From an uncultured Gammaproteobacteria bacterium (lineage in GTDB: Bacteria; Patescibacteriota; Patescibacteriia; UBA9934): a DNA stretch of 64,000 bases. The position numbers were made by a program, and so were the translations under genes. The stretch lies in assembly GCA_964344415.1 (NCBI GenBank), contig CAYFMS010000001.1, forward strand, positions 186,620 through 250,619. Reading direction: 5' to 3'. This document shows positions 2,740-62,942 of the stretch, piece after piece. Numbering within the stretch: the stretch's first letter is position 1; each line of letters opens with the position of its first letter. Below the pieces are notes generated by a model that was given only the letters and a program-made list of their open reading frames with translations, was not told the origin of the DNA and did not search any database.

Positions 2740-3543
2740 ATGGACATGGACCGCATTCGAGTGGAGGAGGAATATGTAAAAAGTATTATTTGGGGTGAGC
2801 AGATTGACTACGTCGCTCAAAAATATCATCAGATGAAGGTCTTGGAATTCATGGACCCTTCGCAAAAAGCATTTTGGATGCAGCTAAAGGAGAGGTATCC
2901 CGAAAAAGAAATCATCTTGCATGGAATTTCGCGTAGTAAGCGTGCAGAGAAGGGTATATATCACCATCTCTTTACTGAAAAACAGGGGAGGGTAATGAAA
3001 AAGAAGCAACTCAAGAAGCAATTGCCATATACGATTGCTCGTTTCGTATTTCGCGGAGGAGGTGATGAATACGATATTGAGAATCGCTATGATAAATTCC
3101 CATTTTTATCTAAATTCATAAAATGGCAGTCGAAGAGAATTGATGCATTTACATTACAGGTGATATTTGAGCTTTCTGATGCTCTTTATCCCTTCTCAAA
3201 AATTGAGCCAGATATTCTGTCACAGCATGAGGATGCAAAAGCATTTATAGAATCGCGCAGAATTCCAGATTTGCGCACGGTATGGATGTCTATTTTTGGT
3301 GTTGCTTTGCAAATTGATCGGGAAGCACGCATGCGTGGGTACGGTGTAAGGCTGATTGGGGAGCCTGTAACATTTATGAATGAATCGTCTGGTGAGAAAG
3401 TGCGAAAAATGGCTTATAGTTTTCATTTTGAGAAGGGTGCGCATATGCCCGTCAGCGATGTAGTACAAGATTTGAAAAATATAAAGTGGATTCGATTTGC
3501 TAATGGGGCGCCGCAAGATGTAAGTCAGTTTTTTTCTATATAA
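2740..3543 (+). CDS. hypothetical protein (267 aa, no family recognised)
   Basis: Long ORF with diverse composition, followed by a hairpin plus T-run at about 3584-3610. Confidence 0.5.
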   Translation: MDMDRIRVEEEYVKSIIWGEQIDYVAQKYHQMKVLEFMDPSQKAFWMQLKERYPEKEIILHGISRSKRAEKGIYHHLFTEKQGRVMKKKQLKKQLPYTIARFVFRGGGDEYDIENRYDKFPFLSKFIKWQSKRIDAFTLQVIFELSDALYPFSKIEPDILSQHEDAKAFIESRRIPDLRTVWMSIFGVALQIDREARMRGYGVRLIGEPVTFMNESSGEKVRKMAYSFHFEKGAHMPVSDVVQDLKNIKWIRFANGAPQDVSQFFSI

Positions 3544-4187
3544 AAACCGCAGGTATAAGCCGCGGCTACAAGAATGATCTCTTCGGGCGCTTGATTTCGC
3601 CCGTTTTTTCATAAACCAAGATACCGTGTCATCCCGGATGGAGCGAAACGAAGATCCTTCAATAGGCCCAGGATTTCGAATGTGGTCGCGAAGTGATTTA
3701 GCTGTAATGCAAAGGAGATAGAGGAGATTTATGAGTTTGTAGGTTTTAGCTGGTAGCTTGTAGGTACGGGGATCAGAGAAGTTAGAAAAGTGAGTAAAGC
3801 TAGAAAAGCGAGTTTGTATAGCAATGGGGGGGGGTAGAACATAGCACGTAGAGAAATGTGAAATCCCAGCCTACGAGCTGGGATCTATCAGTAATCACTA
3901 TTCTGGACTCGATCTAAATCTTTCACCTGGCCCGTGGATCCCAAATCAAGTTTGGGATTACGATCGGAAGTGCGCTAGCAACCAAGCAACAGAAACAAAA
4001 AATCAGCCCAAAGGCTGTTTTTATTCAACAGTTCATTTCACAACTCTGTGATTACAACGTCTTATTTACTGTCCCACTCCGCTCAGCAAGCTGAGCTTCG
4101 TTTGGGACGACTCGAGTTAAGAACTTGAGCCTCGACATTCACCATAGTATCCAGCAGGGCTGGATAACAAGTGATCTTTCTTCCCTA

Positions 4188-5686
<1,499 letters not shown>

Positions 5687-6262
5687 GTATCGAGCTATGC
5701 TCGACCTCTGCTCAGATCTTCTGTTCTGTCATTTCCCGAAGGAAAAGACTTCGTTGAAGATTCTATTGTTGCCATAAAATAAATTTCATGGACTTCGTAA
5801 TAGACGTTGTAATCACACAATTGTGAAAAATCTACTAGATGGGTTGTCATATATCTAGTAGACCTGTTGACATCAATGGTTTTACTCATGATGTATTTTT
5901 GAATGTTCGGGGGTTGCATTCAATTGCGCGGGAATATTACAACACCATAAAAAACCTGTCAAGGATTTTTGTGGGGTGAAGTTATTAAGAGATATAAACA
6001 AAAAAAATAACTCGCCGAAGCAAGATATTTTTGTGCGGGTGCATTGCGCTCCTAGATTATCAACCTATCCTAAGAGTATGGAAAAATAAGCTATTTGTCA
6101 AGTGCTAAAGCCCGTGGACCCAGAGGGGGTTGAACCCTCAAATCCTTGGTTGATAATCCAGGAAATGCAACCCGCTGGGCCCACGGAATTTAATACTCGA
6201 CAAAATAAAAGACCCCTCTAAGGGATCTGTTACTCACATTGTATCTTTCTAATTGAGCCGTA

Positions 6263-7342: not shown

Positions 7343-7552
7343 ATATTATCTTTTCGGTCTTTTTCTCCCTGTACATTGTCGAAATGCTTCGCCGTCCTCA
7401 CCGTACATTCCAGTACGCTTCGTCCTTGCTCGCATTTTTCTTAGCACATAAAGAAAAATCCTCGAAAATCTACTCAGTGAGTTATTTTATTGTGATTCCA
7501 CAACAAGACGTTGCTTACAAAAATCATAGCATGCATCTATTGGTTGTCAAAG

Positions 7553-7730: not shown

Positions 7731-7806
7731 TTGCCACCCGGTTTCGGCACATGAAGTGCTCACCCTGGATGAATCCAGTTTATCATTTGAAGCTTGCTCA
7801 GTCAAA

Positions 7807-8427
7807 CTACTCAGCAGACTCTTCTGTAGCATCGGTCGATGCATCTTCCGCTGGAGCTTCTGCTTCTTCAGGAGCTTCGTCTGACGCTTCGTCGGACACG
7901 TCATCTGTGGGCGCTCCCGCCTTCGCTTCGTCCGAAGCTTCGTCGGACACGTCTTCAGTAGCTTCAGCTGCTGTATCTTCCGCTGTCGCTTCGGATTCAG
8001 TAGATTCTTCAGCCTCCTTTGCAGCTGCCTCTTCTGCAGCCTTAGCTTCTGCCTCTGCTTTTGCAGCTTCTTCAGCAGCTTTCTTTGCCTCTTCCGCTTC
8101 TCGCTTCTTTTCTTCCTCTGCAGCCTTCTTCTCTTCAATTTTAGCTGAACGCTTCTTCGTAATCGTTACAGATGAAGCCTTATCTGCCTTGATGATGCCC
8201 TCATTCACGAGCATATTGTGTACGGATGCAGATGGTTTAGCACCTTGCGAAAGCCAGTATTCAGCGCGATCTTTTTTAATCACGATTTCGCTCGGATTCT
8301 TTCTTGGATTGTAATGTCCAAGAATTTCGATTGCCGGAGACCAAGGGTCTCGACCTTTTTCTTGCACGACAATTCGGTATTGTGGTGCTTTGTGTTTTCC
8401 GGTTCTAGAAAGTCGGATAGTAACCAT
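7807..8427 (-). CDS. rpsP: 30S ribosomal protein S16 with a long acidic, Ala/Glu/Lys-rich C-terminal extension (206 aa)
   Basis: N-terminus MVTIRLSRTGKHKAPQYRIVV...EILGHYNP is canonical S16; residues from about 95 onward are low complexity (AEEAAKAEAEAKAAEE...) with the duplicated peptide DDVSDEASDEA. Confidence 0.85.
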   Translation of the reverse strand: MVTIRLSRTGKHKAPQYRIVVQEKGRDPWSPAIEILGHYNPRKNPSEIVIKKDRAEYWLSQGAKPSASVHNMLVNEGIIKADKASSVTITKKRSAKIEEKKAAEEEKKREAEEAKKAAEEAAKAEAEAKAAEEAAAKEAEESTESEATAEDTAAEATEDVSDEASDEAKAGAPTDDVSDEASDEAPEEAEAPAEDASTDATEESAE

Positions 8428-11009: not shown

Positions 11010-11981
11010 ATGAGTCAGATCATATACCGCCAGATAAAGCAGCATATTGATTCAGCGGAGTCAGTGATTATTATTACTGATCGAGGGATTGACGGGGACA
11101 CTATTGGGTCTTGTCTTGGGCTTTTTCATATTTTGAAAGATTTAGGAAAAGAAGTTGCCGTGTACTCACCAAAGGATTTGCTTGAATCGCTTGAATTTCT
11201 TCCCGGAAAAGAAGTGATAAGGCGAAATATCTCTTCGATCGCTGGCATCGATGCGGATCTTGTCTTTACGCTTGATTGTTCAGACCATATTTATGCGGAT
11301 AAAGTCCGTCGAAAGCTCAAGGCAAAAAATGTTCCCTTGATTGTGATCGATCATCATGAATCGAATCGAAGGTATGGAGACATTAATTTAATTGAAGATC
11401 ATGCAGCCTCGACGGGAGATGTGCTGTGGCGATTCATTAAATGGGCTGATTTTCCTGTATCGCGTCATGCAGCTCAATGTATTTTGACAGCCATTTGTAC
11501 CGACACGCGATTCTTTATCAATACAAATACGACAATAGAGGCATTTGATTCTGCGCGTGAATTAACACATCTTGGTGCGAAGCTGTCTGAGATTGTACGT
11601 CATACGATGATGAATAAAGATGTGAAGACACTCAAATTATGGGGGCTCGCTTTTGAAAGGCTTCATCAAAATGATGAACACGATATTCTTACGACGGTGA
11701 TCACGGATAGAGATCTTAAGCGAATTAATGCATCAGACCCAGATATTAAAGCCATGAAAGATTATTTGAATGTGGTTCTTGAGGGGCATGATGGCTTAAT
11801 GGTGCTCGAGCAGAAGGGGAATGATATAAAGGGCGGTTTACGTTCGCATAAGAGAAATATTTTATCGATTGCGAAAAAATATGGAGGGGGAGGACATGCT
11901 CAATCGGCAGGTTTTCTGATTCAGAATGCCTTTTTGGAAGAAAGAAATGGTTCTTGGCGTATAGTTGAGAGTAAGAATTAA
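11010..11981 (+). CDS. DHH/DHHA1 family phosphoesterase (NrnA-like oligoribonuclease / pAp phosphatase)
   Basis: The IVIDHHESN (DHH) and GGGHAQSAGF (DHHA1 GGGH) motifs. Confidence 0.75.
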   Translation: MSQIIYRQIKQHIDSAESVIIITDRGIDGDTIGSCLGLFHILKDLGKEVAVYSPKDLLESLEFLPGKEVIRRNISSIAGIDADLVFTLDCSDHIYADKVRRKLKAKNVPLIVIDHHESNRRYGDINLIEDHAASTGDVLWRFIKWADFPVSRHAAQCILTAICTDTRFFINTNTTIEAFDSARELTHLGAKLSEIVRHTMMNKDVKTLKLWGLAFERLHQNDEHDILTTVITDRDLKRINASDPDIKAMKDYLNVVLEGHDGLMVLEQKGNDIKGGLRSHKRNILSIAKKYGGGGHAQSAGFLIQNAFLEERNGSWRIVESKN

Positions 11982-12046
11982 TTGACGATTAGCACTCTCT
12001 GCGATAGACTGCTAATTAAGACAGAGGAATATTAATACGAATATTT

Positions 12047-12655
12047 ATGAACGATATTGTTCCAGAGATTACATCTCAAACACTTATTCCGACCGTGATT
12101 GAGAAAACACATCATGGGGAGCGGGCTTATGACATTTATTCTCGCCTATTAAAAGATAGAATTATTTTTCTCGGGCAGGCTATTGATGACACAATCGCAA
12201 ATGCCGTGATTGCGCAATTACTTTTCCTTGCGAGTCAAGACACGGAAAAAGACATAAAGCTCTACATTAATTCTCCGGGCGGATCTGTGACGGCTGGGCT
12301 CGCTATTTATGACACGATGCAATACATTAAGCCGGATGTTTCGACTATTTGTGTTGGTATGGCGGCATCAATGGGAGCGGTGCTGCTTGCTGCGGGTGCT
12401 GAAGGAAAGCGTTTTGCACTGCCAAATTCAGAAATCATGATTCATCAAGTACTTGGTGGAGCGCAAGGACAGGCGACGGACATTAAAATTCACGCCGACC
12501 GCATTATGAAGATTAAAGAGTCGCTCAATAAGATTCTTTCAAAGCATACGGGCCAACCTCTCAAGAAAGTAACGGATGATACGGAACGTGATTACTTCAT
12601 GGAAGCCAAAGATGCGCATAAATATGGCCTGATCGATAAGGTTATTCGCGCATAG
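12047..12655 (+). CDS. clpP: ATP-dependent Clp protease proteolytic subunit
   Basis: [19 protein letters not shown]...[42 protein letters not shown]...IMIHQ; canonical ClpP. Confidence 0.9.
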
Positions 12656-12829
12656 CACTTGACGGATTTGTTTTTTAGTGGTACTTTTAGCCCTTCCTTG
12701 CTCTGCAGGGATCTGCAGCCACGACAAGCATGGGGATATATCAGCTGTTCACTCCGGCTTCGGCTTGACTGGTACCGTAGATATATCTTCTTGGCTGCAG
12801 TTCCTTGTGGGGCATCCGCTTGTCTATTG

Positions 12830-12932
12830 GCGATCTTTGTTTTCAGTTCTCTGGTCCTCGACACCGTACCTTTCAGTACGGCTTACTCCGGTCCTCGAAC
12901 TTCAAACAAATATCATCCAATATCCTTCGCGG
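12830..12932 (+). repeat. dispersed intergenic repeat, core unit (copy Y)
   Basis: About 90% identical by eye to 62742-62843; contains the hairpin CACCGTACCTTTCAGTACGG. Confidence 0.6.
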
Positions 12933-13027
12933 AGTATCATCAAATTTGAAATTAGGAAAACTCAAACGATAGAGTGAGAGAATAGAAAGAATAGAGTCAC
13001 TCAGATCGAAAATGAGTTCAAAATGAA

Positions 13028-13057
13028 ACTCCACAGCCGTTAGGCCGTGGAGTTTCA
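13028..13057. terminator. hairpin terminator between convergent clpP and 13063-13902
   Basis: CTCCACAGCC-GTTA-GGCCGTGGAG followed by TTTCATATTTTC; an almost identical hairpin sits at 14138-14168. Confidence 0.5.
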
Positions 13058-13062
13058 TATTT

Positions 13063-13902
13063 TCATAATTGATCTGCAGGATTTTTTGCATCTTTGAATA
13101 CCTCCCTTGCTTTAGCCTCCCAAGTATTTGCCTCCTCTTCAAAGCCTAGTGCACGCATTTGCTTAATGGCACCCTCTACCCGGTTTTTAGTATCCAATAT
13201 AATATTCGTAGAGGAGTTATCCAATCTACCCGGTTCATCCATAAACATCATGCTCTCAAGATGAGCATCGAACATATTTTTAACATTATAATCACCCTCC
13301 TCAATCATCTTAATTACATCGGGAGATATAGCCCCTTCTGTTCTAGTAAATAAACCACGAAAAGGGTTGTCCTTGTTTTGATCCCATTTTGAAAATATTA
13401 GACCATTAATTTTCATGTCTCCTTTAATAGCTCCTGACTCTATAGCATTTTGAATAGAAAGAAATGCATTTTCACTTTTAGTATACCCAAGATGAGAAGC
13501 GAAATTTGCTTCACTTAACTCTATTTGATGATCACTAACTTTTTCTAGCAATTTACGTGCTACCTCCTTGCCGAGCAACGCTATCTTCAGAGCCATATCA
13601 AAACGCGGCGTTTTGAAGCCATCGACCACATTTGCATCAGGTAATTCGCTGGCAATATTTTCGATTTCTTCCACAGCTTTTTCTTGCTTCCTCTTAATAT
13701 TATCCGCATTCTTCCTCTCTTCATAACTGTCAGACAAAATACTCTTTGCCTCTTCAACAGAAAGGTTTTTTATACGCTCTAAACTCTTCTGATGCTCATC
13801 ATAGAGCTCCTTTTCTCTAACGCTAAATTTGTCAAATATACCAACACCCTCTTCTCCTTTTTCCTCTTTCATTTCTGGCCGATGTCTACTTTCAATTCGC
13901 AT
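13063..13902 (-). CDS. hypothetical protein (279 aa, charged, no family recognised)
   Basis: Long ORF bracketed by two near-identical CCACGGCC...GGCCGTGG hairpins. Confidence 0.5.
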   Translation of the reverse strand: MRIESRHRPEMKEEKGEEGVGIFDKFSVREKELYDEHQKSLERIKNLSVEEAKSILSDSYEERKNADNIKRKQEKAVEEIENIASELPDANVVDGFKTPRFDMALKIALLGKEVARKLLEKVSDHQIELSEANFASHLGYTKSENAFLSIQNAIESGAIKGDMKINGLIFSKWDQNKDNPFRGLFTRTEGAISPDVIKMIEEGDYNVKNMFDAHLESMMFMDEPGRLDNSSTNIILDTKNRVEGAIKQMRALGFEEEANTWEAKAREVFKDAKNPADQL

Positions 13903-23594: not shown

Positions 23595-23764
23595 AGATTA
23601 GTTATGTAGTTAGTAGTAAATAGTAAGTAGTCGATATTGACGATTGACAGCAGATCTCAATTTATGAACCATAAACTTAGATCTGCTGTCATCCCGGACG
23701 AAGCGAAGCGCAGATCCGGGATCCAGCGTGATATACGCAGCAAAATTCGGTCTACGAAGATAAA

Positions 23765-35167: not shown

Positions 35168-35244
35168 GGGCCTGTAGCTCAGCTGGTTAGAGCGCAGAGC
35201 TTATACCTCTGTGGTCGATGGTTCGAGTCCATCCAGGCCCACCA
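35168..35244 (+). tRNA. tRNA-Ile (anticodon UAU, AUA-decoding), CCA encoded
   Basis: GGGCCTG TA GCTC-AGCTGGTTA-GAGC G CAGAG-CTTATAC-CTCTG TGGTC GATGG-TTCGAGT-CCATC CAGGCCC A CCA; perfect cloverleaf with anticodon loop CTTATAC. Confidence 0.85.
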
Positions 35245-35484
35245 CCGAGCTCAGCTCGGTTTCGCCAATGTAAAGTAAAAGCTTAGCTTTTACTTCAGCG
35301 AAACAGTGATATGCTGAGCGAAGGTGATCCAGCTTAGCTGGACATCTCGAGATGAGTTCGGTGGTGCAAAAAAGATTCTGTTGGGATCTTTTTTGATACA
35401 CTAGGCATTTGCGATCTCGGAGTACGGTTTTTTATAAAGTGAACATGCATATTATTTCGAGCATCTTGCTATACTTTCACCAAT

Positions 35485-44189: not shown

Positions 44190-44400
44190 GGGTGTCGCTT
44201 GTGAATGAGCGCTCTTCCGGCTCAGATCTGCGCTACTCGACGCCGCACCTTTCAGTGCGTCTTACTGCGTGTGCTCGATCTTCACCGAAATAGCCTCTCA
44301 TTCACTGCGCGACCACGATCGAAATCCTGAGCCTGTCGAAGGATCTTTCTGTACCTACAAGCTAAACCCTACACCCTACAACCTATCTGCGCTATACTAT
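44190..44400 (+). repeat. dispersed intergenic repeat, diverged copy (Z)
   Basis: Shares TGTCGCTTGTGA, CGCACCTTTCAGTGCGTCTTACTGCG (hairpin module) and CGCGACCACGATCGAAATCCTGAGCCTGTCGAAGGATC (tail module) with the 62.6-62.9 kb copy. Confidence 0.5.
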
Positions 44401-52034: not shown

Positions 52035-52465
52035 GCGTTACTCCTTTGAATGGTTTGTTGAGTTGTTTAAGAACACGGGAACCAATGACACGCTATCAGA
52101 AGACTCATGTGCGCACAAGTGATATACGTGAACCCATGCATGTTGCCATCCTAGATTTAAATAGAACAAAAAAACCGCAGATTTCTCTACGGTCGCGATT
52201 TGGTCACCTGATTCGTGAAGGCATTTTCGTCAATGCCTAATCTTCGGTAGCGGTTGTATTGACACTTTCAAAAAAATAAGTTACTCTTTGCCCACAAATA
52301 AGCCTTCTCTTTACACATTTTGTGTGCGAGAGAAATGGTGTTAAGTCTTCCGAGTACATGGAAAGATTTGAGCAGTGACGAAGCGTACTGAAATGTACGG
52401 TGAGGAGCGGCGCAGAATCTTGACGCAGTAATCGATAGACTTGGGCACTATTTCTGTAAGAAAAA

Positions 52466-52540
52466 GGCCCCATCGTCTAGTGGTTAGGACGCCAGGTTTT
52501 CATCCTGGAAATCGGGGTTCGATTCCCCGTGGGGTCACCA
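52466..52540 (+). tRNA. tRNA-Glu (anticodon UUC), CCA encoded
   Basis: GGCCCCATCGTCTAGTGGTTAGGACGCCAGG-TTTTCAT-CCTGGAAATCGGGGTTCGATTCCCCGTGGGGTCACCA. Confidence 0.9.
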
Positions 52541-52698
52541 ATTTGAAAGTCACCGAAAGGTGGCTTTTAAATTGGTACCTAAGAACAGTCCTGAGGACTG
52601 TTCGAGGGAATCGAACGGCCGGAGCGATGTGCGGCCAGCAGGACGCACCGCGAGGCCCGGTTCCGAATGCGACATTCTGCAGAATGTGGACATGAGGA

Positions 52699-52719
52699 CG
52701 ATTCCCCGTGGGGTCACCA
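52699..52719 (+). repeat. direct duplicate of the tRNA-Glu 3' end (att-like remnant)
   Basis: CGATTCCCCGTGGGGTCACCA is identical to 52520-52540, 160 bp downstream. Confidence 0.6.
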
Positions 52720-52838
52720 CGAAAAAAGTTCAGCTTCTGCTGGGCTTTTTTCGTTATGATCTCCATGGAGGGATTGAAGTCCGTTTACAAAATAAAACGC
52801 CCCTCTGAAAAGAGGGGCTCGTGGCGCTGGCTTGTCGT

Positions 52839-56884: not shown

Positions 56885-56919
56885 TCCTGCCTCGTAATCC
56901 TGAGCCTGTCGAAGGATCT

Positions 56920-57204
56920 ATGAAGAGACCCTCTGTTTATATCATGACAAATTGGAGACATACGGTTCTTTACATAGGCATGACAACTAATCTGAGTAAG
57001 CGTATATCGGATCATAAAAACGGATCAGTACCAGGGTTTACGAAGAAATATAACTGTACTAAGTGTGTATATATTGAATTTGCTGAGACGATTGAAGAAG
57101 CTGCTGCGAGGGAATATCAACTTAAAGGATGGAGGCGATCCAAGAAGAATGATTTGATATCTCAATTGAATCCAGAATGGAGGGATTTGTCTGATCAATT
57201 GTAA
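56920..57204 (+). CDS. GIY-YIG nuclease family protein (small, stand-alone)
   Basis: VYIMTNWRHTVLYIGMTTNLSKRISDHK (GIY...YIG), R and E residues downstream; the start codon abuts a repeat-family tail that supplies AAGGA as RBS. Confidence 0.75.
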   Translation: MKRPSVYIMTNWRHTVLYIGMTTNLSKRISDHKNGSVPGFTKKYNCTKCVYIEFAETIEEAAAREYQLKGWRRSKKNDLISQLNPEWRDLSDQL

Positions 57205-57276
57205 TACAAAAGATCCCTCGACAAGCTCGGGATTTCGATCATAGAATAAAAGACTTTGCATTATAGAAATACATTT

Positions 57277-59764: not shown

Positions 59765-60191
59765 GTGGATAGCGCAGTGAGTAGCTAGTAGAAAGTAGTA
59801 AGTAGATCAGAAATCCCAGCCTGCGAGCTGCCTGCCGGCAGGCAGGGGATCTCTTGCTTGTCATGTTCGGTTATTTTTTGACAGAAAGGCGCAATGGGTT
59901 TAATTTGCTGGTACGTCTAGTGGCATTGGGTTCTTAAGGGGGAAGAATGTGGAATCTTTTCGTACAGGATGCATTCGCGCAGCAAGTGAGGGCAGGGATT
60001 CCAGAAATCCACATCGATGAAGAGTGCATCCCTTGGGTTTTGGTGGCGCTACTTGTGCTCATTGCGCTTGGGCCGCGCAAGCGCGAAGGACAAACAAAGC
60101 CGAAATCGTGATGAGGGTGCGCATTCATACGCTTAGCAAACAGCTGCTGAGCGTTGTTTTTTTTCTACCCTCTGTTAATATGGACATCGAT

Positions 60192-62579
60192 ATGTATGAC
60201 CATAAAAATGTAGACAAGAAATGGCAAAAAATATGGGATGACCGTCAGGTTTTTAGGGCTCTCGATCCGGCGGAAACGGACAAAGATCCGTATTATTGTT
60301 TGATTGAATTTCCTTTCCCGTCCGGGGCGGGGCTGCATGTAGGGCATCCACGGAGTTATACGGCGCTCGATGTTATTGCACGAAAACGTCGCATGCAGGG
60401 GTACAATGTCCTTTACCCGATTGGATTTGATTCATTTGGCTTGCCGACGGAGAATTATGCAATTAAAACGGGCCGAAAACCTCAGGATGTAACGGATGAA
60501 AATATTGCGACATTTCGTAGGCAGTTAAAGTCTCTTGGTTTTAGTTTTGATTGGTCACGCGAGGTTACGACATCTGACCCGGATTATTATAAATGGACGC
60601 AGTGGATGTTCCTTGAATTTTTTAAGGCTGGGCTTGCCTATAAGAAAAAGATGCCAATTAATTGGTGCAAGAGCTGCAAAATTGGCCTTGCGAATGAAGA
60701 GGTGGTTCAAGGGGCTTGTGAGCGTTGTGGCGGCGAGGTTGAGAAGCGCGATATTGAGCAATGGATGATTCGCATTACAGATTATGCAGATCGCCTTATT
60801 GATGATCTTGATACGGTTGATTACCTCGAAAAAATCAAAAAGTCTCAAATTGACTGGATTGGCCGTTCCACCGGTGCCGAGATTGATTTCACTGTTGATG
60901 ATTCGGATGAGAAGTTGAAGGTCTTCACAACACGTCCTGACACGATTTTCGGGGCGACATATATGGTGCTTGCGCCTGAACATCCGCTTGTTGATTCTCT
61001 GACAACAGATGAACAGCGTGATGCGGTGACTGCCTATGTTTCAGAGGCTGCAAAAAAAGATGATATTGACCGCAGTAATGACGAAAAAGAAAAAACGGGA
61101 GTTTTCACTGGCAGCTACGCAATCAATCCATTGAATGATGAAAAGATTCCTATTTGGGTAGCGGACTATGTCTTGATGGGTTATGGAACGGGTGCGATTA
61201 TGGCTGTTCCGGCGCATGATGAGCGCGATTTTGCTTTTGCAACGAAGCATGACATTCCAATTATCGAAGTTGTGGGCGGTGAGGGAGATCTTCCGCGCAT
61301 TGAGAATGGATCTTCTGTGAATTCCGGCGAATTCGATGGACTTGATTCAGACGAGGCAAAGGAAAAAATCACGGCGAAGCTTGAAAAGATTGGGGCGGGG
61401 AAGGCAACGACGAATTATCGACTACGTGATTGGGTATTTAGTCGGCAGCGATATTGGGGCGAGCCAATTCCTCTTGTTCACTGTGAAAACTGCTCACCAG
61501 AAACAAATGGTTGGGTAGCTCTTCCCGACGATCAGCTTCCGCTTGTACTTCCTGATATAGAACATTATCAGCCGACGGATGACGGTGCTTCTCCACTTGC
61601 TGCCGCCGAGGATTGGGTGAATACCGAATGTCCTACCTGCGGAGGTCCCGCAAAGCGCGAGACAGATACGATGCCGAACTGGGCTGGATCAAGCTGGTAT
61701 TTCTTGCGCTATATTGATGCTCAGAATAAAAAAGCTTTTGCATCTGAAGAGGCATTGAAATATTGGACGCCGGTACATTGGTATAACGGAGGTATGGAGC
61801 ATGCGACGCTGCACCTTCTTTATGCTCGTTTTTGGCATAAATTCCTCTTCGATCGAGGGCATGTTCATACAAGTGAACCATTTGCGAAGCGCACAAGTCA
61901 TGGGCTGATTATGGCCGAAGATGGGACGAAAATGAGTAAATCAAAGGGGAATGTGGTAAACCCGGATGATATCGTTCAGGAATTTGGAGCAGATACACTT
62001 CGTGTTTATGAACTATTTATGGGTCCTTTTAGTGAAGCGGTTCCTTGGTCAATGAATGGTGTGATTGGTGTAAAGCGTTTCCTTGATAAGGTTGCGAGGC
62101 TTCCTGAACACATTTCTGATTCAGAATCAGAAGATGTGACGCGTGAGCTTCATAAGATGATCAAAAAAGTGACTCAGGACATTGAAGATATGCGTTTTAA
62201 TACAGCGATTGCTCAAATGATGAGCTTTGTGAATGTAGCTATGTCGAGTGAAGGTCTGACACGCGAGAGCTTTGATCTCTTCCTAAAGACATTGAATCCA
62301 TTTGCGCCACATCTTACAAATGAATTAGCAGAGGGTGATCAATTGCTCGATATTCAATCTTGGCCGGAATTCGATGAATCGATTGCAAAGGACGACATTT
62401 TGGAGATTGCTGTACAGGTGAATGGGAAATTGCGCGGAACAATTCAGGTGAGTGCTGATGCTGATAAAGATGAAGTTGAGCGATTGGCGAAGGAAGCGGA
62501 AAATGTCCAGAATTTTCTTACTTCCGAGCCTAAAAAGGTCGTATTCGTCCCCGGAAGATTGATCAACTTTGTCATCTAG
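60192..62579 (+). CDS. leuS: leucyl-tRNA synthetase
   Basis: FPFPSGAGLHVGHPRSY (HIGH), KMSKSKGN (KMSKS), CP1 editing domain; start taken at MYDHKNVDKKWQKIWDD. Confidence 0.95.
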   Translation: MYDHKNVDKKWQKIWDDRQVFRALDPAETDKDPYYCLIEFPFPSGAGLHVGHPRSYTALDVIARKRRMQGYNVLYPIGFDSFGLPTENYAIKTGRKPQDVTDENIATFRRQLKSLGFSFDWSREVTTSDPDYYKWTQWMFLEFFKAGLAYKKKMPINWCKSCKIGLANEEVVQGACERCGGEVEKRDIEQWMIRITDYADRLIDDLDTVDYLEKIKKSQIDWIGRSTGAEIDFTVDDSDEKLKVFTTRPDTIFGATYMVLAPEHPLVDSLTTDEQRDAVTAYVSEAAKKDDIDRSNDEKEKTGVFTGSYAINPLNDEKIPIWVADYVLMGYGTGAIMAVPAHDERDFAFATKHDIPIIEVVGGEGDLPRIENGSSVNSGEFDGLDSDEAKEKITAKLEKIGAGKATTNYRLRDWVFSRQRYWGEPIPLVHCENCSPETNGWVALPDDQLPLVLPDIEHYQPTDDGASPLAAAEDWVNTECPTCGGPAKRETDTMPNWAGSSWYFLRYIDAQNKKAFASEEALKYWTPVHWYNGGMEHATLHLLYARFWHKFLFDRGHVHTSEPFAKRTSHGLIMAEDGTKMSKSKGNVVNPDDIVQEFGADTLRVYELFMGPFSEAVPWSMNGVIGVKRFLDKVARLPEHISDSESEDVTRELHKMIKKVTQDIEDMRFNTAIAQMMSFVNVAMSSEGLTRESFDLFLKTLNPFAPHLTNELAEGDQLLDIQSWPEFDESIAKDDILEIAVQVNGKLRGTIQVSADADKDEVERLAKEAENVQNFLTSEPKKVVFVPGRLINFVI

Positions 62580-62741
62580 GTCGCTTGTCTGCTGGCGCAC
62601 TTTGAACTCCAATCATCGAATCTATCCCCTGCCTGCCGGCAGGCAGGTCATCGTACGTTTCAGTACGCCTGCGGTAGATTCTCGATTGTCGTCCAAATTG
62701 CATCCAGCATCCTTCGCGACTACTATGTCGCTTGTGAGTTA

Positions 62742-62843
62742 GCGATCTTTGTCCTCGGTTCTCTGGTCCTCGACACCGTACCATTCAGTACGGCTTACTC
62801 CGGTCCTCGTACCTCGAACAAATCTCATCCAACTCACTTCGCG
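62742..62843 (+). repeat. dispersed intergenic repeat, core unit (copy X)
   Basis: About 90% identical by eye to 12830-12932; hairpin CACCGTACCATTCAGTACGG. Confidence 0.6.
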
Positions 62844-62942
62844 ACCACGTCCTGTAATCCTAGACTTTGAGCGGGGATCCACACGATTAGCAAGATTAAT
62901 CCGTACACCCTAACTTTACTTACTTTTCTAACTTTTAAACCC

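Follow-up and report, generated by a model that had tools for sequence, protein, structure and literature searches.

Classical miniature inverted-repeat transposable elements (MITEs) are derived from DDE transposons and carry terminal inverted repeats and a target-site duplication, and elements of the IS200/IS605 type have short subterminal hairpins and insert after a fixed tetra- or pentanucleotide. Repetitive extragenic palindromes (REPs) are 20-40 bp long and possess a GTAG or CGTC head (PMC3733652). A dispersed repeat that resembles each of these in part was studied in a 64,000-nucleotide stretch of contig CAYFMS010000001.1 (the window), in which an initial annotation had flagged positions 62580-62940. 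Its core fold-back unit of about 125 nt is called the rod here. The LeuS and KhpA proteins encoded in the window are 60-78% identical to proteins labelled Candidatus Uhrbacteria or Patescibacteria, and on account of these names the genome is taken to be a Uhrbacteria-like member of the Candidate Phyla Radiation (CPR), in place of the PVC group that the 16S signature had suggested. The best explanation of the data is that the rods are a new family that was amplified in this CPR (Patescibacteria) genome. No published description of the rods, or of the tail sequence that follows some of them, was found in a literature search.

The rod family and its fold

Self-comparison of the window revealed a dispersed repeat family. 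The best pair, 12817-12931 and 62729-62843, showed 86% identity over 115 nt, where about 90% had been claimed for 12830-12932 against 62742-62843, and a third copy at 44193-44269 was more diverged. A degenerate 26-mer for the hairpin region (TCNNCRCCGYACNWTYCAGTRCGNYT) matched five sites in the window against 0.00 expected from 100 shuffles. Covariance models (R1, built on the three best window copies, and R2, built on 24 matches) located seven rods within the window and an eighth about 0.7 kb upstream of it, at L037 7921-8046(-). This amounts to eight copies in the 76 kb that were read of the 768-kb contig (ENA ERZ930061). The flagged region itself consists of two tandem rod units, 62579-62723 and 62726-62848. 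The strand that is purine-rich and folds better, referred to as R-sense, is the reverse complement of the one quoted in the initial annotation. The seven window copies, with the E value of the covariance model and, where given, the energy and z score of the fold, are:

62579-62723, (-), rod of subtype A; E 2e-15; -73.5 kcal/mol, z -9.0
62726-62848, (-), rod of subtype A, in tandem with 62579-62723; E 4e-29
12814-12936, (-), rod of subtype A, between clpP and a convergent gene; E 2e-32; z -8.1
44193-44316, (-), rod of subtype A, 4 nt past the argS stop codon; E 2e-26; z -6.7
7352-7469, (-), rod of subtype B, in the predicted 5' untranslated region (UTR) of khpA-trmD; E 3e-16; z -5.4
52329-52455, (+), rod of subtype B, co-oriented with tRNA-Glu (52466-52540); E 3e-13; z -5.7
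379-504, (+), rod with the variant tip UGUAC-CUAGAU-GUACA; E 5e-21

The initial annotation was right that the family is real and that its copies are intergenic, which holds for all seven copies supported by the model. Its list of copies needed revision, since it had missed 379-504 and had included 56885-56920 and most of 3628-4188. These last two do not contain the CCGTAC hairpin that had been ascribed to every copy and represent separate tail modules. The possibility that the copies are coding sequence or parts of one duplicated gene was ruled out: they are intergenic, fold as rods and overlap open reading frames (ORFs) that differ from copy to copy.

The first position of the rod at 62579-62723 coincides with the final base of the leuS stop codon, which the 3' foot of its folding strand touches, and a 26-nt palindrome (62624-62649) is inserted beside its tip. 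The same palindrome (CTGCCTGCCGGCAGGCAG) also occurs at 59825-59850 in the spacer upstream of leuS. For the tandem unit 62726-62848 the fold reached -54.1 kcal/mol (z -7.1) on the minus strand versus -34.0 on the plus strand, and for 379-504 the z score was -3.6 versus -2.2 for the opposite strand. The identity of argS next to 44193-44316 was obtained from Pfam.

Each copy is an imperfect palindrome whose whole length, 115-145 nt, forms a single long and irregular hairpin. On the R-sense strand a single rod was obtained for 14 of the 14 copies folded, with z scores from -5.2 to -9.0, and 0 of 200 shuffles were as stable. This strand folded better in 17 of 18 cases, by 4-20 kcal/mol. In both subtypes the tip is a stem of 5-6 bp that ends in a GNRA-like tetraloop and has GA-rich internal loops next to it. 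It reads, in the R-sense, GGAGUAAG-CCGUAC-UGAAAG-GUACGG-UGUCGAGG in subtype A and GAAG-CGUAC-U-GNRA-N-GUACG-GUGAGGA in subtype B. Further down the rod the loops YGAG.../...AGA and UAGGA.../...GACAAAG and a 3' foot ...ACAAG are conserved. The helices between the loops have no sequence in common across copies and keep their complementarity; the lower-stem arms GTGAGTT, GTGAATGAG, TATTGG, TGCTGG and AATTAA each stand opposite their own complement.

Preservation of the pairs, for which the initial annotation had proposed a covariation check of the hairpin, was found in an alignment guided by a covariance model. Standard pairs occupied 88.4% of its cells compared with 58.5% in shuffles and 32-41% with slid partners, and changes on both sides were seen in 34 of 39 pairs; these figures lean toward structure because the alignment was fitted to the structure by the model. 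Every measure exceeded those of 500 out of 500 shuffles and of all slid controls. The effect is large and agrees with the independent folds of single sequences. Diverged copies retain 92-100% of the pairs. When the raw segments were aligned with MAFFT and submitted to RNAalifold, only the 5-bp tip stem was recovered, because the helices cannot be aligned by sequence, and it is for this reason that a model-guided alignment was needed.

At the paired positions of the R-sense strand 71 G.U were counted versus 16 A.C. Because an A.C on this strand is a G.U on the opposite one, this shows that the purine-rich strand is the strand under selection to fold. The same strand also won under DNA energy parameters, with which both strands can form the rod. 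The strand bias therefore does not separate RNA from single-stranded DNA.

Several known motifs were considered for the rod and discarded. Domain 5 of group II introns shares a partial likeness (AGCCGUA...GUACGGU), but its distal stem is missing and subtype B does not show the likeness. A K-turn, a sarcin-ricin motif or a T-loop at the tip was rejected since, on our reading of the sequences, they misfit the consensus arrangements. The rod is no terminator, as it has no U-tract and canonical terminators stand beside the copies. It does not contain a promoter either: GACAAAG, which is conserved, looks like a -35 box, but at a workable spacing a -10 box is lacking. As a separate observation, 12 bases of the R-sense sequence GAGGACCGGAGT (12880-12900 and 62792-62812) are identical to the descending strand of the sarcin-ricin stem-loop of 23S rRNA (compared with E. 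coli 23S). This is probably a coincidence because, on a rough estimate, about 0.07 such rRNA matches are expected and the structural context differs.

Occurrence, turnover and the tail modules

Outside this contig three exact matches to the tip were found in a scan of genomes, each of them in one and the same metagenome-assembled genome (CAYWYQ01) and with flanks unrelated to the window. A scan of metagenomes yielded 29 loci, about a dozen of which are distinct true members by rod fold and model match; the remainder are probably chance hits in coding DNA. The contigs that carry rods span 39-67% GC, and the tip and the purine-rich internal loops are conserved there too. Among the carriers is one with genes for CheR and for an HD-GYP-type HD domain protein (Pfam HD_5), and this makes it unlikely to be a CPR bacterium. 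While the helices evolve freely, a tip of about 35 nt is fixed across very different genomes, and this points to a conserved partner.

No rod was detected with the covariance model in about 70 kb of four related CPR genomes. Two of these (L040 and L041, chosen by LeuS) cover the syntenic trxA...leuS-udg-comEC region and the other two (L045 and L046, chosen by KhpA) cover the rpsP-khpA spacer. Relatives whose proteins are 67-78% identical thus have no rod ahead of khpA and none after leuS. This absence, which includes syntenic sites, is why the rods are read below as a lineage-amplified element. No match at the gathering score was obtained for the window and 19 loci among the 4,227 families of Rfam 15, and none at E <=10 for three rod-bearing regions. 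Nor was there any similarity to plasmids, or a blastn match at E <=1 in 5,426 complete E. coli genomes. A scan of viral sequences gave one partial match, to the tip alone (29 of 123 model positions, E 0.034).

Signs of turnover are present at several sites. Rods occur in tandem (62579-62848 and L003 1225-1509), one of the latter (L003 1385-1509) has decayed and lost its fold, a truncated rod foot is found at 3682-3701, and foreign sequence has been inserted within rods at 62624-62649 and in L020. The insertion in L020, within 322-476, measures about 90 nt and lies in one arm of a rod that is intact in two other contigs (compare L011 580-734). In another, probably non-CPR organism the loci L008 and L018 are 98% identical over 151 nt, comprising the rod and short flanks, and their flanks are otherwise unrelated by blastn, apart from a weaker similarity, broken by indels, of about 70 nt further toward tnpB, up to the end of the L018 contig. 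The L008 rod (11154-11255) is located 270 nt upstream of this tnpB (11526-12620), which encodes an OrfB_IS605 protein with a Cas12f-like TNB domain. That the rod is the left end of the tnpB element could not be established, since the close match with L018 covers 151 nt only. No tnpB homologue was present in the other sequences compared, so that a TnpB gene lies near the L008 copy only.

Beyond the rods, the flagged region and other parts of the window contain short modules, which are listed here together with the GIY-YIG gene that one of them surrounds:

62849-62885, (+), tail1-like degenerate module GTAATCCTAGACTTTGAGCGGGGATCC that follows a rod; matches 3670-3704
62910-62934, no strand, short AG/CT-rich module, an inverted copy of 3779-3803 (25 nt, 92% complementary)
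44317-44384, (+), tail1 (44317-44348) and CTAC-rich tail3 (44351-44384), which are separate repeat families
56892-57240, (+), GIY-YIG ORF (56920-57204; Pfam E 2e-17) between inverted tail1 copies (56892-56919 and 57209-57240)
3624-3701, (-), tail2 (GTCATCCCGG...GATCC), tail1 and about 20 nt of rod foot in the 16S trailer; no rod tip
23687-23717, (-), second copy of tail2, from the self-comparison

The tail1 sequence (GAAATCCTGAGCCTGTCGAAGGATCT) is found at 44317-44348, at 3651-3680 and as the inverted pair around the GIY-YIG ORF. It follows three sites counted as rods (44317, 62849 and 3651), and five of the eight rods of the genome have no tail. The alignment of the 44193-44328 copy with the flagged site runs on to 62861, past the end of the rod, and the 51 nt at 3651-3701 are 84% complementary to 44297-44347, including about 20 nt of rod foot. 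The GIY-YIG ORF, with a product of 94 amino acids, is inserted between trxA and trxB, and the two tail1 copies on its sides are 91% complementary. In the right-hand copy a promoter-like sequence TCGACA-18-TAGAAT (57218-57247) points into trxB.

Small GIY-YIG genes (about 93 amino acids) nest between inverted or direct hairpin modules of the GTCATYC...GRATGAC type elsewhere as well. In L042 (Patescibacteria, 2920-3345) the homologue is bracketed by GTCATCC...GGATCCCATT and its complement. In L043 (2815-3480) it lies between direct hairpin copies of about 155 nt, GTCATTCTGAG...CCTCGACAAGCTCGGAATGAC, whose right arm nearly matches the right tail1 repeat of the window. The 1-kb gap between leuS and udg in L040 is crowded with GTCATTC...GAAGAATCT modules (12680-13290). 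Rods were absent from the GIY-YIG loci L042 and L043, and neither a GIY-YIG gene nor tails were seen at the rod-bearing loci from other organisms. This implies that the link with GIY-YIG is real for the tails and unsupported for the rods. The tails are a repeat family of their own, associated with GIY-YIG genes. The abutting GIY-YIG gene reported in the initial annotation is thus flanked by a tail module as inverted repeat; the proposed single family of a core plus modules had merged at least two unrelated families. Splitting the rods from the GIY-YIG-linked tails resolves what looked like one composite repeat.

Gene boundaries and competing explanations

The 3' foot of the R-sense strand ends at a gene boundary strikingly often. 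The boundaries and the distances to them are:

379-504: fills the spacer between tRNA-Phe (291-365) and tRNA-Ile (503-579), 0-2 nt from the tRNA-Ile 5' end
52329-52455: tRNA-Glu 5' end, 10 nt
L037 7921-8046: tRNA-Pro 5' end, 7 nt
L009 family: tRNA-His 5' end in an Arg-His spacer, 9 nt
L022: tRNA-Asp 5' end, 6 nt
7352-7469: khpA ATG (7342), about 9 nt
62579-62723: leuS stop codon, convergent, 0 nt
44193-44316: argS stop codon, convergent, 4 nt
L001: tRNA 3' end, convergent, 2 nt
L003: 3' end of a tRNA-like sequence (no tRNA call), convergent, 2-3 nt

Rods occur in both orientations relative to the neighbouring genes. Promoter-like sequences were observed upstream of four of them: TTGACA-16-TATGAT on the minus strand (7550-7523) ahead of 7352-7469, TTGACG-17-TACACT ahead of tRNA-Phe (238-266) and thus upstream of 379-504, TTGCCA-17-TACACT ahead of the tRNA-Pro unit, and a perfect TTGACA, read in the sequence at 52259-52264, upstream of 52329-52455. 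From these sites and the position in tRNA operons it is predicted that the R-sense strand is transcribed in four of the eight copies, as leader or spacer of tRNAs or as khpA 5' UTR. The subtype A copies immediately follow leuS, argS and clpP but are on the strand opposite to them, and their R-sense strand was not seen to have a promoter.

Taken together, the data are read as follows, with a probability of about one half. The rods would be a non-autonomous fold-back element that was amplified in this lineage, with selection for folding of the purine-rich strand and with frequent read-through as the leader hairpin of a tRNA or mRNA. Such an element would spread in single-stranded form, as ssDNA or as RNA, and would need the rod fold; the conserved tip and loops would serve as a handle for a moving or binding protein. 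It would land, or survive, at gene boundaries. Wherever a rod lies in sense upstream of a tRNA gene or an ORF it would be transcribed as a leader or spacer hairpin, and RNase P, in cleaving at the tRNA 5' end, would presumably cut it off.

A number of observations weigh against this. The flanks of 23 copies contain neither target-site duplications, for which the initial annotation had proposed a search, nor common bases or a motif, and no transposase was seen in the 76 kb of the contig. In the subtype A copies the strand with predicted transcription is the pyrimidine-rich one, which folds less well. The constant gap of 0-10 nt to tRNA 5' ends and the GA-rich conserved loops look more like a functional RNA, and the covariation was measured in an alignment fitted by the covariance model. 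Finally, the copies look old (<=86% identical in the genome) yet are almost perfectly paired, which fits structural selection in place as well as it fits turnover of active copies. The same pattern is to be expected when activity is limited to foldable copies, an argument that has been made for REPINs (PMC3116915).

The main rival holds that the rods are cis-acting RNA hairpins of leaders and spacers, kept in place by selection and bound at the tip by a conserved protein or nuclease, which would set processing, stability or expression, so that the copies constitute a regulon and do not reflect mobility. Five independent copies are co-oriented with a tRNA gene at 0-10 nt from its 5' end (Ile, Glu, Pro, His and Asp), one stops about 9 nt short of the khpA ATG and has an 11/12 promoter match upstream of it, and the neighbours are mostly translation-related (tRNAs, leuS, argS, trmB, khpA-trmD and 16S). 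The persistence of 92-100% of the pairs in diverged copies, the GA-rich internal loops and the GNRA-like tetraloop are also in line with it. Nevertheless, this explanation is rather unlikely. The relatives have no rods upstream of khpA or downstream of leuS; half of the copies run antisense to the transcription on their flanks; some copies are tandem, truncated or decayed; and another organism has two loci that are 98% identical and whose flanks are unrelated.

It is improbable that the rods are multicopy trans-acting small RNAs of about 125 nt, made from promoters of their own or released from tRNA precursors by RNase P and RNase Z. Release of this kind would be analogous to tRNA-linked snoRNAs and viral tRNA-miRNA units. 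The rod at 379-504 fills the spacer of two tRNA genes, so that tRNA processing would set it free, and conserved structure and strand bias would suit such an RNA. However, the rods are not followed by a terminator, no promoter is visible for the folding strand in subtype A, nothing points to a target and the distribution among relatives is patchy.

Much the same holds, with still lower odds, for a role as double-stranded DNA, that is as a cruciform or protein-binding palindrome (for supercoiling, the nucleoid or replication) or as an intergenic barrier to transcription. Both strands form the rod under DNA parameters too and the rods are situated at gene boundaries, but G.U outnumbers A.C and the tip is asymmetric, both of which indicate a selection on one strand that a double-stranded site does not need, and canonical terminators are separate, beside the copies. 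Mobilization by the small GIY-YIG nuclease in the manner of REP and RAYT, with the tails as its recognition hairpins, is just as improbable: the ORF is nested in inverted tail1 copies and tail1 comes after three rods (44317, 62849 and 3651), but other organisms have rods at loci that lack the gene and the tails, L042 and L043 have tail-type hairpins and no rods, and five of the eight rods are tail-free.

A further-reaching proposal is possible but doubtful. The rods may be an undescribed structured RNA that crosses phyla, a 'tRNA-leader rod' whose conserved tip, GA-rich and with a GNRA cap, recruits a conserved factor controlling the maturation or expression of tRNAs and translation genes in CPR and other uncultured bacteria, or else a new single-strand mobile element that homes to tRNA 5' flanks. 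The recurrence of rods 0-10 nt upstream of mature tRNA 5' ends raises the question of whether a leader hairpin influences processing by RNase P. The same placement raises the question of whether a bacterial element targets the 5' flanks of tRNAs. CPR genomes are small and streamlined, about 0.8-1 Mb. With one rod per about 10 kb, and if this density holds, the present one would hold roughly 80 copies, which is a considerable investment or load.

Some features of the surrounding tRNA and rRNA genes are recorded here. Just upstream of the leader rod of tRNA-Pro, a 62-nt tandem duplication includes the 5' foot of the rod (L037 8030-8150, minus strand). In L003 (3778-3970) a GTGGCTCCA acceptor 3' end, as in the tRNA-Thr of L001, precedes a near-duplicate of the L001 rod without a tRNA call; tRNA end and rod seem to have been duplicated together. 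Terminator hairpins lie inside longer palindromes of inverted partial tRNA 3' ends at 52680-52815, 35215-35360 and L037 3195-3340, for example CCCCGTGGGGTCACCA from tRNA-Glu. A tRNA-Ile gene at 35168-35244 has the anticodon UAU (tat), which is uncommon in bacteria. The 16S rRNA gene (4189-5685, minus strand) is not followed by a 23S gene: a convergent ORF comes after a repeat-filled trailer of about 650 nt (both in the region 2740-4188), and the rRNA genes of the window appear to be unlinked. Upstream of 16S, at 6080-6220 (-), a strong rod-like hairpin (-59 kcal/mol, z -6.2) is unrelated to the rods in sequence. Short direct repeats rich in GCTTC/GCAGC are present at 7800-8110 inside a minus-strand ORF beside tRNA-Thr. 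This ORF may be the repetitive tail of S16 (rpsP), the gene that precedes khpA in relatives.

Comparison with known systems

The suggestion of the initial annotation that the repeats are MITE- or REP-like, or structured RNAs, is borne out in so far as they are dispersed, non-coding fold-back units with covariation and strand bias; they lack the target-site duplication that defines classical MITEs and the size and head that define REPs. As to terminal inverted repeats, the ends of a rod pair with each other (e.g. GTCGC...GCGAC) as the foot of the full-length hairpin, and the foot sequence varies between copies. Like the rods, ERIC and the fold-back MITEs of Yersinia and Neisseria (listed in PMC3733652) are imperfect palindromes of about 125 bp that are strictly intergenic and occur in either orientation. 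Repeats of the ERIC type also lie inside transcription units, so that the RNA bears a long hairpin, as in the predicted units here. ERIC is characterized by transcribed intergenic DNA that forms an imperfect palindrome of about 127 bp, and the folds and the predicted transcription units of the rods fit this description. Unlike ERIC, the rods show no homology to it in sequence and no target-site duplication. They differ further in a tip that is conserved across genomes of 39-67% GC, in a strong bias for a single strand and in their recurrence just upstream of tRNA genes.

The REP, BIME and REPIN families with their RAYT share with the rods the dispersed extragenic palindromes, the compensatory evolution of stems, the strand-specific recognition and the absence of target-site duplications. 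The rods, in contrast, measure about 125 nt and their foot sequences have no GTAG or CGTC heads; no RAYT gene was present among the Pfam-scanned neighbours or in the gene tables of L004 and L037 (76 kb of the 768-kb contig). The palindrome-associated elements of IS200/IS605 (PATEs) resemble the rods in having a hairpin on one strand and neither the usual terminal inverted repeats nor a target-site duplication. A strand-specific hairpin without target-site duplication was indeed found for the rods (G.U 71 versus A.C 16), but these do not have a fixed flank motif, and no TnpA gene was seen in the 76 kb.

Conserved structure with covariation and conserved loops is a property that the rods share with the structured RNAs of Rfam, yet no Rfam family matches them; pairs are kept via compensatory changes in the alignment fitted by the model, as is generally expected of a structured RNA. 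The hairpin repeats of the type GTCATYC...GRATGAC that we name GIY-YIG-associated, and on which no publication was found, match tail1 and tail2 only and are unrelated to the rod core in sequence and distribution. The rods thus fail the defining features of each system, be it homology, size and head motif, target motif or target-site duplication. They are closest to ERIC in architecture and to REP/REPIN or the hairpin elements of IS200/IS605 in evolutionary behaviour.

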